Positions 18,536-56,557 of a stretch of 64,000 nt of DNA are shown here, in pieces (the stretch's first letter is position 1; each line of letters starts with the position of its first letter). The DNA lies in the NCBI GenBank assembly GCA_040904605.1, contig JBBDTA010000109.1:30309-94308 (forward strand), written 5' to 3'. The translations under genes were made by a program, and so were the position numbers. The DNA is from Paenibacillaceae bacterium (lineage in GTDB: Bacteria > Bacillota > Bacilli > Paenibacillales > UBA4045). The notes under the pieces were generated by a model. It had not been told where the DNA came from. It ran no database searches and saw only the letters and a list, made by a program, of their open reading frames with translations.

Positions 18536-18721
18536 CTTCCGGTTCCCCCTTCCTAGGAATAAAATGTTTGGAAATTTCATCCGCTAGGACCTACGTCATT
18601 CACTGCTCGAGGGAAAAATCTCTCGCAACATTCAATGTCATGAGTGAATCCTGGTTCCTATAATATTGTCAACGAAACTAAAAATAACATCTCTTGACCG
18701 GAAATGCAATACTTTTTTTTG

Positions 18722-18819
18722 GGAATCGAGTTCAAAGTTTTGTGTAACAAAACTACTTCGCAAGTATAAGCTTGCTTTGAAACAAAGAAGAGGCCTTATA
18801 GGCCCCTAAACTCGATTCC
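18722..18819 (-). repeat. 98-nt module bounded by a perfect 11-bp inverted repeat; contains leader-motif copy D and a terminator hairpin
   Basis: GGAATCGAGTT (18722-18732) and AACTCGATTCC (18809-18819) are perfect reverse complements. The interior contains AAGCTTATACTTGCGAAGTAGTTTTGTTACACAAAACT (minus strand). Confidence 0.8.
18780..18807 (-). terminator. Candidate terminator of the 195-aa ORF
   Basis: Minus strand reads AGGGGCC-TATAA-GGCCTCT followed by TCTTTGTTT. Confidence 0.55.
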
Positions 18820-22597: not shown

Positions 22598-22636
22598 CTT
22601 AATTGTAACAAAACTACTTTGCAAACACCAATTAAG
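22598..22636 (-). repeat. 8-bp inverted repeat enclosing leader-motif copy E, overlapping the lonB stop codon
   Basis: CTTAATTG (22598-22605) pairs with CAATTAAG (22629-22636). On the minus strand the 23-nt loop reads GTGTTTGCAAAGTAGTTTTGTTA. Confidence 0.7.
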
Positions 22637-30128: not shown

Positions 30129-31052
30129 TTAAGATACAAAAACGGAGGCAATGAAGCTTTTTATTCGTTCATAAGCATGCTCCATCTGGATACGCTGTTC
30201 AGCATCCAAATCATAGCTTGAATTGATAGTTTCCTCGTCAGCAGATCCCGTCATTGTCTCTACTACTGCCTGATGAAGAGCGGCTGCCCAGACCTCAATA
30301 TCATCCTCGTCCATTTGCTGAAGCGGCTTATACAAGGAGGTTCCATATATATAAGCAAGGAATTCCTGCCAAGTATGTTCGACAAAATAAGTCAAATTCG
30401 GATGATGAACCTCACTAACGTCTTTGATACGATGAATCACATGTTGCACCCCAGTAGGGTATTGTTCAAGTTGCAAGGGAGTGAGTGCAATATCAATCTC
30501 CACTTGTTCGCCGCATCTTTGAATCTTCACAGCCCCTGTACAGTGTCTTTCTCGCAGGGTTCTCAGCACTTTAAATTGAACTAATGGATGAAGATCGACC
30601 TGCTCCAGCCATCGTATTAATGTGTCATTAATCTGCGGATGGTCAGCAATTACAAGCTGCTCGAGCGCGACCATTTTTTTGTCTAATCGAGGATCAGACA
30701 GTATGATTTCTAATAGCTTTTTTACGTAGTTAGGATCCTCAGACATCTTAGTATAGAATCGTTGTTTATGTAAATCCTTCTCCGTTACTTCCTCCTCATC
30801 ATCAGATTCAGAATCAGGAGGAACATCTAGCTCACTATATTCAATAAAGGTTGTCCGCAGCCATTCTAGAAGAGCATTCCACTCCTCCGAGGTTTGTTCA
30901 TCGTCATTCCGGCATTGGAGTAGAAATTGAAGCAGCCGCACTGCTTCCTCATACTTCTCTGTTTCCAATAAATGTGTTAGCTCTTCTTGGTAATAGTCGA
31001 TGGTTTTAGGCAGCAGAATCACATTGTCTTTACGTATGCTATCGATGGCCAC
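30129..31052 (-). CDS. Hypothetical acidic helical protein (307 aa)
   Basis: Long ORF with an extended -10 (TGCTATAAT) upstream. The GTG start has an unusually short spacer after AGGAG. No catalytic motif recognised. Confidence 0.55.
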   Translation of the reverse strand: MAIDSIRKDNVILLPKTIDYYQEELTHLLETEKYEEAVRLLQFLLQCRNDDEQTSEEWNALLEWLRTTFIEYSELDVPPDSESDDEEEVTEKDLHKQRFYTKMSEDPNYVKKLLEIILSDPRLDKKMVALEQLVIADHPQINDTLIRWLEQVDLHPLVQFKVLRTLRERHCTGAVKIQRCGEQVEIDIALTPLQLEQYPTGVQHVIHRIKDVSEVHHPNLTYFVEHTWQEFLAYIYGTSLYKPLQQMDEDDIEVWAAALHQAVVETMTGSADEETINSSYDLDAEQRIQMEHAYERIKSFIASVFVS

Positions 31053-31209: not shown

Positions 31210-31283
31210 GCGGGTGTAGTTCAGTGGTAGAACGCCAGCTTCCCAAGCTTGAGGCGAGGGTCCGATTCCCTTCACCCGCTCCA
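31210..31283 (+). tRNA. tRNA-Gly, anticodon CCC (CCA encoded); non-canonical features
   Basis: Hand-folded cloverleaf with acceptor GCGGGTG/CACCCGC, D arm GTTC-AGTGGTA-GAAC and anticodon loop TTCCCAA. There is a C28-U42 mismatch in the anticodon stem, and the T-loop reads TCCGATT (C at position 55). Confidence 0.75.
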
Positions 31284-31301
31284 TTGCAATAATTATGTTG
31301 T

Positions 31302-31375
31302 GTCCCAGTAGCTCAGCTGGATAGAGCAGCGCTCTTCTAAGGCGTCGGTCGGGCGTTCGAATCGCTCCTGGGACG
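31302..31375 (+). tRNA. tRNA-Arg, anticodon UCU (no encoded CCA)
   Basis: Acceptor GTCCCAG/CTGGGAC, anticodon loop CTTCTAA, T arm GGGCG-TTCGAAT-CGCTC; 74 nt. Confidence 0.9.
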
Positions 31376-31851: not shown

Positions 31852-31876
31852 GTTGTTACTTCGCAGCCATAAGCTT
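31852..31876 (-). repeat. Leader-motif copy F (partial)
   Basis: Minus strand reads AAGCTTATGGCTGCGAAGTAACAAC, 24-48 nt upstream of the 120-aa ORF start. Confidence 0.6.
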
Positions 31877-35207: not shown

Positions 35208-35216
35208 TATTAACAA

Positions 35217-35304
35217 CCCCTAAAAGTTTTTGATGACTGCGCGAGCAGTCGATAAAACTACTTCGAAAGCATAAGCTTAGTTTTAGATTTACTTTATTCT
35301 ACCA
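35217..35304 (-). repeat. Promoter/5'-leader cassette copy A (full) upstream of rph
   Basis: Minus strand reads TGGTAGAATAAAGTAAATCTAAAACTAAGCTTATGCTTTCGAAGTAGTTTTATCGACTGCTCGCGCAGTCATCAAAAACTTTTAGGGG. It has an extended -10 (TGGTAGAAT) at 35296-35304 and a GACTGC-TCGC-GCAGTC hairpin. Confidence 0.85.
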
Positions 35305-35463: not shown

Positions 35464-36519
35464 CTACAATTTCTGAGGATTCACCTGTGATGGACGGCTA
35501 ACCGGTGTCGAATAATTGACATTATCAGAAGCTGCTGCTACCGCTTGACCATCAATCATGATCTGAACTTTGGGGACGCCTATTTGTTCAGTCAATGATA
35601 GCACTAGAGCTTGCAGGCTATCTGCCGAAACTTTATGATCTGAACCTATAATATTGCGGCCGAAATTTACGATAACCGTATCTTCCTTTTGTTCAACATT
35701 TAGTACTTCAGTCGTAGACGCCATAACACTAGAAAGCTGTGATTCATCCACAGGTCCCTTCACTAGTTCATGTACAGCTGCTGCAGTCATATCTTCTGTG
35801 TGTGGAATAAGGCGAGTGACCGGCACATAATACGTATAATTGTCTGTATTCTGACTTTGAAAATATAATGTCACTGCCGATGCTAATGCAGGATTTACAT
35901 CCTGAGTTCTCTCTAGATTTATTCCCATCCCTCTAGTCAGAGGCTCATCCAGAGGTGTTCCATCAACTGGCATTTGTTTGAGCACTCTGCCAGCCACCCA
36001 AATTTCTACCTTGTTGACGGATTTGAAGCCAGTTAACGTCCAAGTAATAGCTTCTAGAATTTTGCGTTCATCCTGAGGATTATACTGGGTAAAGTGCTCA
36101 GAGAAATCCACAATGGCCAGACCATTATTGGTTATATTCGTAACTATGGTCGTCCCTTTGGGTATGAGTGCACTAAATCCAGACGGTAATAGTCCTTCCG
36201 CAGGTCCTCCATCGACCATATACTCCAATGCAAGCTCCGCAATCTTCTCCTCAGCAGGTATTCTCAGTCCTATCGGAGCAACATAACCCTGGGCATCCTT
36301 GTAATACAACGTTACTGGTGCCAGCTGCTCGGGTTCAGCCATAACTTCTTCATCTGCTTCGTCCGTGAATATTTCTGTTTCCAGCTCATAATCTACCTGG
36401 GGCGGATCAATCTGCGTGCTGGTCTCCTCAGCTCCAAACCATCCGCATCCCGACAGAAGAAGTGGAATCGATACGAGACCTACAAGCAAGAACCGGCGAA
36501 TGAAACGAATATGCTTCAT
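35464..36519 (-). CDS. gerM: Germination/sporulation lipoprotein GerM-like
   Basis: Lipobox LLLSGCGW; 351 aa; located upstream of rph as in B. subtilis gerM-rph. The two GerMN-type halves are inferred from size and position only. Confidence 0.7.
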   Translation of the reverse strand: MKHIRFIRRFLLVGLVSIPLLLSGCGWFGAEETSTQIDPPQVDYELETEIFTDEADEEVMAEPEQLAPVTLYYKDAQGYVAPIGLRIPAEEKIAELALEYMVDGGPAEGLLPSGFSALIPKGTTIVTNITNNGLAIVDFSEHFTQYNPQDERKILEAITWTLTGFKSVNKVEIWVAGRVLKQMPVDGTPLDEPLTRGMGINLERTQDVNPALASAVTLYFQSQNTDNYTYYVPVTRLIPHTEDMTAAAVHELVKGPVDESQLSSVMASTTEVLNVEQKEDTVIVNFGRNIIGSDHKVSADSLQALVLSLTEQIGVPKVQIMIDGQAVAAASDNVNYSTPVSRPSQVNPQKL

Positions 36520-36527
36520 GGTTACGA

Positions 36528-36615
36528 CCTCCTAAAGTTTTTGATGACTGCGCGAGCAGTCGATAAAACTAACTTTGTAAGCATATGCTAGTTTTTGAAG
36601 CATCTTATTCCTATG
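36528..36615 (-). repeat. Promoter/5'-leader cassette copy B (full) upstream of gerM
   Basis: Minus strand reads CATAGGAATAAGATGCTTCAAAAACTAGCATATGCTTACAAAGTTAGTTTTATCGACTGCTCGCGCAGTCATCAAAAACTTTAGGAGG. It shares a 38-nt perfect block with copy A. Confidence 0.85.
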
Positions 36616-36769
36616 TATACGAGCCTAGCTTGTTTTTATACCGGATTTGTCCACGAAACTAGCTTATGTTTTAAAACATCATTTATCTAACGTCATGAAT
36701 ATGTTACGATGAGGAACATTACGGTCAAAGTTAAACTTATACTTATGATATTTTTTTGGGGGGATCCAC

Positions 36770-44747: not shown

Positions 44748-44783
44748 TGATATAATATTTCGTAATTCAAAACTTTAAGGAGG
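44748..44783 (+). repeat. Leader-motif copy I (core-less version) with extended -10, upstream of the 235-aa ORF
   Basis: Plus strand reads TGATATAAT-ATTTCGTAATTCAAAACTTTAAGGAGG. The 3' part matches TCAAAAACTTTAGGAGG of copies A and B at 15 of 17 positions. Confidence 0.55.
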
Positions 44784-54143: not shown

Positions 54144-54832
54144 TAGGATTCTCCTTTCAGCACATAACCCATACCGCGAAGAGTCTGAATCATCCGCGGC
54201 TCACCGCCCTCTTCTGTTTTCTGTCTCAGCATGGCCACATACACCTCAAGCACATTGGACTCACCACTAAAATCGTAGCCCCATACTCTCTCCATAATTG
54301 TATCCCGAGATAATACTCTGCGTGGGTTGTCCATGAATAAATGCAGAAGCTCAAATTCCTTCGTCGTCAACTCGATTAGGCGGCCACCTCGGAACACTTC
54401 GCGTGAATCAAGATCCATAATGATATCCTGAAATTTTAATTTAGTAGATATGTGATCCTTGGATTCTGTGTTCCGACGAAGCAATGCCCTTACTCTGGCC
54501 AGAAGCTCCTCTAATGCAAAGGGCTTAACTAGATAATCGTCTGCACCAAGATCAAGACCCTTCACCCTATCACCAACCTCGTCCTTAGCGGTTAGCATGA
54601 GAACCGGTATTGTTATACCTCCGTCACGTAGTCGCTGAATGACTTCCCAACCACTCAATTGGGGCATCATCACATCTAGAATAATGAGCTCTGGCTCATG
54701 AGATAACAATTGCTTCAAACCTTCACTCCCATTAGCGGCAGTGATTACCGAATATCCCTCGAAGGCTAAACTTCTACGGATAAGCGAGGTAATCTTCTCG
54801 TCATCATCGATGACCAATATAAGATTAGCCAT
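54143..54832 (-). CDS. OmpR/PhoB-family response regulator
   Basis: Receiver domain (LVIDDD ... ILDVMMP ... LTAK) plus a winged-helix C-terminus (RGMGYVL). Its position next to htrA is reminiscent of CssRS, but that is unproven. Confidence 0.9.
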   Translation of the reverse strand: MANLILVIDDDEKITSLIRRSLAFEGYSVITAANGSEGLKQLLSHEPELIILDVMMPQLSGWEVIQRLRDGGITIPVLMLTAKDEVGDRVKGLDLGADDYLVKPFALEELLARVRALLRRNTESKDHISTKLKFQDIIMDLDSREVFRGGRLIELTTKEFELLHLFMDNPRRVLSRDTIMERVWGYDFSGESNVLEVYVAMLRQKTEEGGEPRMIQTLRGMGYVLKGES

Positions 54833-54840
54833 ATGTATAA

Positions 54841-54923
54841 CCTCCTAAACGTATTTAGATGGCTGCGCGAGCAGTCGATAAAACTACTTCGTAAGCATAA
54901 GCTTTATATAACTTATTCTACCA
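54841..54923 (-). repeat. Promoter/5'-leader cassette copy C (full) upstream of the response regulator
   Basis: Minus strand reads TGGTAGAATAAGTTATATAAAGCTTATGCTTACGAAGTAGTTTTATCGACTGCTCGCGCAGCCATCTAAATACGTTTAGGAGG. It shares a 42-nt block with copy A with one mismatch. Confidence 0.85.
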
Positions 54924-54948
54924 CAATCGACAGTTTTCAAAAAAAGGG

Positions 54949-56523: not shown

Positions 56524-56557
56524 CCCTCCTTGTAAGTTTTGTGTAGATGCTAGTTAC
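56524..56557 (-). repeat. Leader-motif copy H (core-less version) upstream of htrA
   Basis: Minus strand reads GTAACTAGCATCTACACAAAACTTACAAGGAGGG. It shares AAGTTTTGTGTA (12 nt, plus strand) with copy D and ATGCTAGTT with copy B. Confidence 0.5.

Follow-up and report, generated by a model that had tools for sequence, protein, structure and literature searches.

The 64,000-nt stretch analysed here, hereafter the window (positions 30,309 to 94,308 of contig JBBDTA010000109.1 from a Paenibacillaceae bacterium), carries a lineage-restricted, mobile and expandable repeat of about 54 nt, which lies on the sense strand immediately 5' of ribosome-binding sites. This repeat is not a promoter cassette, nor is it a terminator or a gene-specific regulator. 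It is probably a lineage-specific, non-autonomous leader repeat, both interspersed and tandem, which lodges next to the Shine-Dalgarno sequence (SD) of unrelated genes. Three near-identical segments were found in the window on the minus strand, upstream of rph, of gerM and of the gene of an OmpR-type regulator. Their 27-nt core GTTTTATCGACTGCTCGCGCAGTCATC was matched three times in the window at no more than one mismatch and never in 100 shuffles, and a repeat finder grouped the three copies (hereafter A, B and C) on its own, adding a fourth, partial one at 18749-18778. The initial annotation had described a sense-oriented leader module of three unrelated genes, ending at the SD, and this was indeed confirmed, together with the 38-nt block shared exactly by A and B (35223-35260 and 36534-36571), the 42-nt block in which A differs from C by one mismatch (35237-35278 in A), and the AGTTTT(T/A)GA direct repeats that flank the core.

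Copy A is one full unit (35223-35284, minus strand; 91 bits, E = 1e-19 with covariance model R1) in the 5' untranslated region (UTR) of rph, a 248-aa RNase PH gene (Pfam RNase_PH) with a TTG start at 35216. It reads AAAACT, the 5' motif AAGCTTATGCTTTCGAAGT, then AGTTTT-ATC-(GACTGC TCGC GCAGTC)-ATC-AAAAACTTT, with the tip hairpin, H3 (GACTGC-TCGC-GCAGTC), at 35235-35250 on the minus strand, as seen from the sequence and from covariation within the family. The native extended -10 of rph (TGGTAGAAT, 35296-35304, minus strand) lies outside the repeat and is kept in orthologues, including at empty sites, and the native SD AGGGG (35217-35221) and TTG codon (35214-35216) together occupy 35214-35221. 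Copy B (36534-36596, minus strand; 83.7 bits) is likewise one full unit in a 5' UTR, that of gerM (351-aa GerM, ATG at 36519); it is preceded by a 5'-truncated tail GCTTCAAAAACT and ends at AGGAGG (36528-36533). Copy C (54848-54910, minus strand; 72.8 bits), also one full unit, sits in the regulator leader (229 aa, ATG at 54832), between the native promoter TGTGGTAGAAT (54915-54925) and the SD AGGAGG (54841-54846).

The unit is thus about 54 nt long (53-61 nt in its variants) and reads AGCWTATGCTTACGAAGT-AGTTTT-(variable tip hairpin)-CATCAAAAACTT, with AAAACTTAGCnTATGCTTACGAAGTAGTTTTATCGACTGCTCGCGCAGTCATCAAAAACTTT as the consensus of 17 aligned copies. It comprises a 5' motif of strong conservation, (A/T)AGCWTATGCTTACGAAGT, then a base helix formed by AGTTTT...AAAACT around a variable tip (a 6-bp hairpin, a 4-5-nt loop, or an alternative of about 34 nt), and a tail, CATCAAAAACTT. 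The 5' motif is the most conserved part: its 19-nt form ATGCTTACGAAGTAGTTTT was identical in 15 of 26 copies from different genomes. The tip, by contrast, occurred in several versions, namely GACTGC/GCAGTC, GACCAC/GTGGTC, a hairpinless GTTTTG-TTCA/TTACA-CAAAAC, and the alternative of about 34 nt. The latter (…GTC.TAC…GCTACAC) takes the place of the hairpin between GTTTTG and CACAAAAC in related loci L023 (2926-2995) and L022 (about 1627-1700), so that related forms of it occur in two different metagenomes. The 45-nt core that had been delimited initially, plus one of its 9-nt flanking repeats, makes 54 nt, which is the tandem period in relatives.

Placement was strikingly uniform. The sequence surveyed with model R1 (E <= 0.05) amounted to about 270 kb, made up of the window and related loci, and gave 30 matches representing 19 non-orthologous gene sites. 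All 30 lay on the strand of the next downstream gene, with none antisense, and at 18 of the 19 sites the terminal unit ended 0-5 nt before the SD, and in most copies 12-18 nt before the start codon (6-18 nt overall). Downstream genes encode RNase PH, GerM, the OmpR regulator, DapA, TatD, TenA, ThiE, TatA, a MoCF biosynthesis protein, a cysteine-synthase-like protein, AsnC, HtrA, IspH and PgpA, which share no common function. Two copies in L038 stand 130 nt from each other in opposite orientations, each in front of one of the divergent genes gerM and pgpA, showing that orientation tracks the gene, not replication. Plus-strand genes of the window that carry remnants (pgpA and a 235-aa DUF2161 gene) likewise have them on the plus strand. 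As a side observation, the repeat stands directly before the thiamine genes tenA and thiE in L023 (2995-3070 and 7958-8072); thiamine genes of this type are usually preceded by a thiamine pyrophosphate riboswitch in Bacillales.

True copies are confined to one uncultured Paenibacillaceae clade. A degenerate-pattern scan of one genome per species gave 12 matches, only two of which were true copies, both in the metagenome-assembled genome (MAG) Paenibacillaceae LejiaA_43_22, one before dapA right after the preceding stop codon and one before tatD; the other ten were chance matches in unrelated taxa, such as the coding sequence TATCGACTGCCCCGGCAG in Rhodobacterales-type MAGs. The genome that the window comes from is absent from this set of representatives, and an exact search with its GerM gave no match. 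A metagenome scan returned 25 loci, five of them true (L015, L021, L022, L023 and L029) and 20 due to chance. The homologues of GerM and of the regulator place the window in an uncultured Paenibacillaceae clade, with best identities of 90% for GerM and 100% for the regulator (the latter in an NCBI MAG). No copy was present in 21 kb of syntenic sequence from a relative whose concatenated proteins are about 63% identical (55% for GerM). Searches of phages, plasmids and viral contigs gave no match to the repeat, only two tRNAs in the window reached the gathering score in Rfam (the best sub-threshold scores on the repeat, at E <= 10, had E-values of 0.8-6), and an exact-sequence literature search returned only unrelated primers and aptamers; Rfam, phage, plasmid and literature sequence searches thus linked the repeat to no described repeat or RNA family. 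An assembly artefact was ruled out, the family being present in independent JGI, ENA, Logan and NCBI assemblies.

The comparison of the syntenic loci of six relatives revealed both filled and empty orthologous sites, in accordance with the small insertion that had been considered initially. The gerM site is filled in the window, L038 and L042, and empty in L040, L044, L051 and L052. At rph, the copy is pristine in the window, degenerate and dissimilar in L040 and L042, and missing from L038 (the sister of the window), L044 and L051. The regulator site is filled in the window and L047, degenerate in L046, and empty in L048 and L050. Upstream of htrA, L046 has two units, the window and L048 a remnant (AAGCTTA+ATCAAAAACTTTT in L048), and L049 and L050 are empty. 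The lytB site holds a degenerate full copy in L048 and a tail remnant in L046, and is empty in L047, L049 and L050, while that of a 94-aa gene holds three units in L040 and is empty in L038/L039, L042 and L045. Promoter and SD were unchanged in the empty versions of all these sites. Indeed, TTTGGTAGAAT or TTTGGTACAAT is kept before rph in L038, L040, L042, L044 and L051, with or without the repeat; (A/G)TGGTAGAAT or ATGATAGAAT is kept before the regulator in L046, L048, L049 and L050; and the SD and spacer of gerM, AGGAGGTCGTAACCATG, hardly differ between filled and empty sites.

The TGGTAGAAT promoters and the SDs are therefore native, since orthologous loci lacking the repeat keep them. Promoter and terminator scans detected no sigma-70-like promoter and no terminator-like site inside the copies, and the repeat is thus an insertion between a native promoter (or a preceding stop codon) and a native SD. 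This bears directly on the initial proposal of a mobile promoter and leader cassette, bringing its own extended -10 and ribosome-binding site as in Neisseria REP2/CREN. The presence of TGGTAGAAT upstream of copies A and C speaks for it, but the same promoters occur at the same flank distance where the repeat is missing (rph in L038, L044 and L051; the regulator in L048 and L050), the SD and spacer of gerM are identical or nearly so whether the site is filled or empty, in L003 and L006 the copy comes directly after the stop codon of the gene before it, and the unit contains no promoter-like site. We consider such a cassette extremely improbable, and the extended -10 should not be counted as part of the element. 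A separate observation concerns the regulator site in L049 (9735-10000, from the LejiaA MAG), where about 150 nt of unrelated sequence separate the native promoter GTGGTAGAAT from the regulator SD; this insert starts with a repeat remnant, AAGCTAATCAAAACTTTTT, and is possibly a second element at the same site.

The repeat has turned over within this clade. Presence or absence of the repeat varied among relatives at 80-90% protein identity, and the pattern of filled and empty sites on the concatenated GerM+AsnB+Ham1 tree, ((((window,L038),L040),L042),(L044,L051)),L052, can be accounted for only by repeated gain and/or loss. At filled orthologous sites, the repeat has changed more than the adjacent, nearly invariant promoter block, and at the sites of a 122-aa ORF (open reading frame) and of pgpA, old copies have decayed differently in each genome.

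Copy number was variable too. Head-to-tail arrays comprised two to four units of 53-61 nt, and the last unit always abutted the SD. Units were identical within an array and different between arrays, and arrays are thus formed in situ. The right end of the array is fixed, whereas its left end falls at unit positions 41-52, 1-6 or 22, so that several arrays start with a 5'-truncated unit. The clearest case is that of L040 (7095-7400) and L041 (7149-7400), whose flanks are 100% identical and which have three and two units, respectively, a difference of exactly one 54-nt unit. The L040 array also has a separate tail remnant, GCAGGCATCATCATCAAAAACTTT, upstream, and the gene caller had put a 57-aa ORF over its three units. 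Remnants such as AAGCTTA+ATCAAAAACTTTT and solo tails point to internal deletion. Taken together, the fixed right boundary and variable, 5'-truncated left boundary, the arrays of identical units, the strict sense orientation, and the SD as the only sequence common to all target sites could also be expected of a retroposed or template-switch product. Copying of leader RNA or of a nascent DNA strand would then start on the SD side and run towards the 5' end, with insertion of the product at the SD of another gene, which predicts a constant 3' end, 5' truncations of varying extent and concatemers joined head to tail. This explanation is nevertheless very unlikely: no reverse transcriptase was seen in the available sequence, such elements have no known precedent in bacteria, and slippage with local deletion explains the arrays and truncations more simply.

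At the level of structure, the GACTGC/GCAGTC hairpin recognised initially is real and covaries, with GACCAC/GTGGTC as its alternative. Five of its six pairs were changed on both sides, amounting to 17 cells versus 4.9 in shuffles (none of 500 shuffles reached 17), and slid controls scored much lower, in an alignment that had been fitted to the covariance model. An independent alignment of a cleaner 17-copy set (MAFFT followed by RNAalifold) recovered the tip hairpin, with three compensatory pairs, plus a 3-bp 5' hairpin. RNAalifold predicted no pairs on the model-fitted alignment (A2), because its degenerate rows are too gappy, and the base helix AGTTTT/AAAACT is uninformative for covariation because it is invariant. 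Folding confirmed that the central AGTTTT can pair alternatively with the upstream or the downstream AAAACT, as had been suggested, and this alternative pairing would favour slippage in single-stranded DNA. The SD was unpaired in most folds.

A covarying hairpin beside the SD may also indicate a post-transcriptional operator, in which a trans-acting RNA-binding protein or small RNA would read the invariant AUGCUUACGAAGUAGUUUU and the hairpin, co-regulate the translation or stability of many mRNAs, and spread by plugging genes into a regulon. That 15 of 26 copies, from different genomes, have an identical 19-nt 5' motif despite their varying tips is in line with such a function, as are the strict position relative to the SD, the sense orientation, and the G.U pairs of the 5' hairpin, which favour the sense strand. 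Yet the genes concerned share no theme, orthologous copies decay freely and evolve faster than the adjacent promoter, close relatives, and even near-identical strains, differ in the presence and copy number of the repeat, most folds do not sequester the SD, and no candidate factor was identified, so that we hold an operator to be unlikely.

The same hairpin could be viewed as that of a single-stranded DNA element moved by an HUH/Y1 enzyme of the IS200/IS605 TnpA or REP-RAYT type. The GTTTT 5' of the hairpin would act as a guide, pairing with a flanking AAAAC at the cleavage or target site, with seamless excision and insertion near AAAACT-like targets. The complementarity of this GTTTT to AAAAC on both flanks is as expected of such an element, and so are the GTAG located just 5' of the palindrome (AAGTAGTTTT), hairpin covariation, which befits a substrate read by its structure, the A.C mismatches of the tip hairpin, which are G.T on the other strand, and the clean empty sites. 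Moreover, an A-rich ...(A)ACTT precedes the SD in 5 of 18 empty sites (hand count), as compared with about 3% of other genes. By contrast, the orientation of the copies follows the gene and not the replication strand (the divergent pair in L038), none of the 30 copies is antisense, and inverted pairs or clusters of the REPIN/BIME kind were not found. The left boundary is variable and often lacks AAAACT: the latter is found at both ends of A, B, L003 and L023, which is not the case for C, L006 or L029. A strict AAAACTT target is equally difficult to sustain, as the window has only two further AAAACTT sites next to an SD, and the motif is missing from many empty sites; the empty regulator, lytB and 94-aa sites have no AAAACT-like target. 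Finally, the Pfam lists of related loci and the 21 window ORFs scanned contained no Y1_Tnp or RAYT. Mobilisation of this type is therefore rather improbable in our opinion. As for the flanks, for which resemblance to target-site duplications had been one of two initial readings, they are more probably the unit boundaries of a 54-nt tandem repeat than clean target-site duplications, copies C and L006 being without a left AAAACT and left ends being variable.

At the DNA level, the leader repeat enters transcribed DNA right at the 5' edge of a gene's own SD and always in the orientation of that gene, either 3' of the gene's own promoter or between cistrons, with a right boundary fixed at the SD and a variable left one. 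It then expands or contracts in situ to zero, one, two, three or four units, presumably through slippage or unequal exchange between AAAACT(T) direct repeats, and copies otherwise decay through mutation and deletion. Spread to new sites may involve a dedicated trans-acting enzyme that reads the conserved 5' motif and the base helix, or else copy-choice or gene conversion anchored on microhomology of the tail and SD. In RNA, the repeat would be co-transcribed in the 5' UTR or intercistronic spacer, as expected from its location between a native promoter and an SD, or from one cistron to the next. Its small stem-loops would stop 0-5 nt before the SD and leave it unpaired, and the repeat may well be tolerated because the SD stays free. 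It may also modestly protect the downstream mRNA against 5' decay, by analogy with 5' stem-loop stabilisers known from Bacillus. No copy was found in neutral intergenic DNA, which suggests that placement reflects targeting or SD-anchored copying, and not selection alone. That the repeat truly homes to translation-initiation regions, with dedicated machinery, or SD-anchored copy-choice or retro-copying, reading the SD region itself and inserting a sense unit at the 5' edge of the SD, seems to us a doubtful extension; such homing would be recognised by a 3' junction that is fixed, by truncation of first units at their 5' side and by concatemers whose units are identical.

Several points weigh against a mobile leader repeat. 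No mobilising gene, excision product or autonomous partner was seen in the 270 kb of this lineage, and the Pfam scan of 21 window ORFs and the Pfam lists of related loci showed neither a transposase nor a reverse transcriptase. The 19-nt motif conserved across genomes could equally mean a functional RNA operator. The inner branches of the GerM+AsnB+Ham1 tree are short, and the empty sites with ...ACTT before the SD could be footprints and not virgin sites, so that gain and loss are not always distinguishable. The difference between three and two units in two assemblies could partly reflect assembly collapse. The evidence for structure is modest as well: the consensus energy was only -4.6 kcal/mol, the base helix was not predicted by RNAalifold, z-scores of single sequences ranged only from -1.6 to -3.2 in four sense-strand folds, and the strand test was contradictory, with 10 A.C versus 3 G.U in the tip hairpin and 7 G.U versus 2 A.C in the 5' hairpin.

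The window also contains partial copies, most of which were already listed in the initial annotation. Those at 18734-18779, 31852-31876, 56524-56557 and 44766-44776 were confirmed, whereas the fragment at 22604-22625 is weak and unproven. The first, a short variant upstream of a speD-like gene (18734-18779, minus strand; 33.6 bits, E = 1e-5 with the covariance model), has its tip hairpin swapped for GTTTTG-TTACA-CAAAAC; it lies about 130 nt 5' of the ATG, after a terminator-like hairpin, and is the sole copy not abutting an SD. Its surroundings (18700-18800) are unlike those of all other copies, the variant being inside an 11-nt inverted repeat, GGAATCGAGTT...GAACTCGATTCC, and the terminator-like hairpin just before it consisting of AGGGGCCTATAAGGCCTCT and a T-run. 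Upstream of htrA, the decayed remnant TAGCATCTACACAAAACTT is followed by the SD (56524-56557, minus strand), where the orthologous site of L046 has two intact units. Another, AAGCTTATGGCTGCGAAGTAACAAC, precedes a 120-aa ORF (31852-31876, minus strand), with a diverged full copy in L038 (35.4 bits). A third, sense-oriented upstream of plus-strand pgpA (36727-36757, plus strand), matched at only 10.3 bits in the window, and degenerate copies exist at the orthologous sites of L038 (9735-9795) and L044 (589-646). Relatives thus carry fuller orthologous copies of all three remnants, intact at htrA and diverged or degenerate at the 122-aa ORF and pgpA. The 235-aa DUF2161 gene has a solo 3' tail, TTCAAAACTTT, directly 5' of its SD (44766-44776, plus strand), which is supported by orthologue conservation: L046 and L049 retain (AT)TCAAAA(A)CTTTT. 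As for the uncertain fragment between lonB and lonA (TTGCAAAGTAGTTTTGTTACAA, 22604-22625, minus strand), it was seen by eye only and did not match the covariance model at E <= 10.

Two neighbouring features deserve mention in their own right. Between pgpA and gerM (about 36619-36645), a 24-nt block, AAAAACAAGCTAGGCTCGTATAC as read on the minus strand, is identical in all relatives, even in L052 at 55% GerM identity, and is conserved far beyond the sequence around it; the plus strand reads as a small hairpin with a T-run, and pgpA and gerM, which diverge, may share this block as a promoter or regulatory site. At 31210-31375, two plus-strand tRNA genes stand amid mostly minus-strand genes (49 of 54 ORFs), in a region where GC skew is uniformly negative.

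Other classes of element were rejected. An Rfam-type cis-regulatory RNA or riboswitch does not fit a repeat that matches no model, varies in presence among relatives and precedes unrelated genes. A MITE (miniature inverted-repeat transposable element) was dismissed since terminal inverted repeats are lacking: the ends are AGCWTATGC... and ...CATCAAAAACTT, and inverted repeats are internal only, although filled and empty sites between relatives are a MITE-like trait. In a CRISPR reading, the 21 nt between successive GTTTT...AAAAC palindromes would be spacers, yet they are the constant 5' motif, identical in every unit. An integron attC site (RYYYAAC ... GTTRRRY) has the opposite arrangement, both strands of the repeat reading 5' GTTTT...AAAAC 3'. 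There is presumably a likeness to the ribonucleic antiterminator (RAT) of BglG/LicT (ACUGC-loop-GCAG..AAAAC), but RAT hairpins overlap an intrinsic terminator and precede sugar-utilisation genes, whereas here nothing like a terminator coincides with the copies and the downstream genes are unrelated. Translational coupling by an upstream ORF, as for mycobacterial MIRUs, was discarded because the mini-ORF is not conserved, and a transcription-factor operator because stem bases covary instead of being conserved and the repeat lies 3' of promoters.

Small interspersed repeats are common, and very few are tied to one strand and to one position relative to the ribosome-binding site; here all 19 sites were sense-oriented and 18 of the 19 abutted the SD. 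Turnover between genomes that are 80-90% identical implies repeated rewriting of the 5' UTRs and intercistronic spacers of housekeeping genes. If placement reflects targeting, an unknown insertion mechanism that reads translation-start regions would be implied; homing, if true, would represent a kind of targeting that has not been described in the mobile DNA of bacteria, and a natural genome-wide rewriting of 5' UTRs. If it reflects function, the repeat would be a portable leader hairpin and a possible natural insulator or stabiliser part. It also offers a variable-number tandem-repeat (VNTR) marker for this uncultured Paenibacillaceae lineage, and is a source of mis-assembly and mis-annotation, such as the spurious 57-aa ORF in L040.

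When compared with known repeats, the initial statement that no element of this arrangement had been described appears overstated. Neisseria REP2/CREN, Borrelia IR-A and mycobacterial MIRUs are indeed sense-oriented repeats described at translation starts (PMC3184786, PMC12548453). The closest analogues are the mycobacterial MIRUs, which are the nearest in concept, and Neisseria REP2/CREN. MIRUs have been reported to insert at translation starts in the orientation of the gene (PMC3184786; PMC12548453), and, like the present repeat, MIRU-VNTR loci are scattered and have co-transcribed tandem arrays in which units of 40-100 bp vary in number, and sites that are filled in one relative can be empty in another. 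Tandem units that lie at gene starts, within transcribed intergenic DNA and in sense orientation, are found in both. However, the ends of the MIRU ORF overlap the flanking stop and start codons, with translational coupling at -4 nt, whereas the sole ORF found here, ATG-CTT-ACG-AAG-TAG (4 codons), stops some 40 nt short of the SD and lacks conservation: it is frame-shifted in B, L003 and L029, and units of 53 and 61 nt are not multiples of three. Furthermore, our repeat stops before the SD and not at the start codon, shows no sequence similarity to MIRUs, and belongs to a different phylum. REP2/CREN and Borrelia IR-A/IR-B lie immediately upstream of unrelated genes, in sense orientation (PMC3184786). 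They resemble the leader repeat in being dispersed, lacking terminal inverted repeats and having two internal stem-loops, but they are 120-150 bp long and contain a promoter, ribosome-binding site and ATG, whereas here the promoter and SD are those of the host and the unit, of about 54 nt, is tandemly amplified.

The pneumococcal BOX element (boxA-boxB(n)-boxC) is modular and intergenic, with a module of about 45 nt that is tandemly reiterated, stem-loops and co-transcription. The reiterated short module and the stem-loops are shared with the leader repeat; BOX elements, by contrast, can lie in either orientation and have no known tie to the SD, and there is no sequence similarity. Elements of the REP/BIME/REPIN type are evoked by the short imperfect palindrome (33-nt GTTTT...AAAAC) and by the many extragenic copies, and perhaps by the GTAG just 5' of the palindrome; AAGTAGTTTT is present in nearly all copies, and its GTAG overlaps the base helix. 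REPs, however, occur in both orientations and as inverted pairs, typically downstream of genes or between convergent genes, whereas our copies are all sense and on the 5' side of genes, their arrays are direct only, and no RAYT was seen in the Pfam lists or the 21 ORFs. Palindromic elements derived from IS200/IS605 share the lack of terminal inverted repeats, a subterminal hairpin, guide-like complementarity to the flanks and clean empty sites, and differ in that orientation here is not bound to replication, the left end is variable and the putative target is missing at many empty sites. Since each known class has defining features that are not those of the leader repeat, the latter is best described as a small interspersed repeat, presumably co-transcribed, with an unusually strict, sense-only placement next to the SD.

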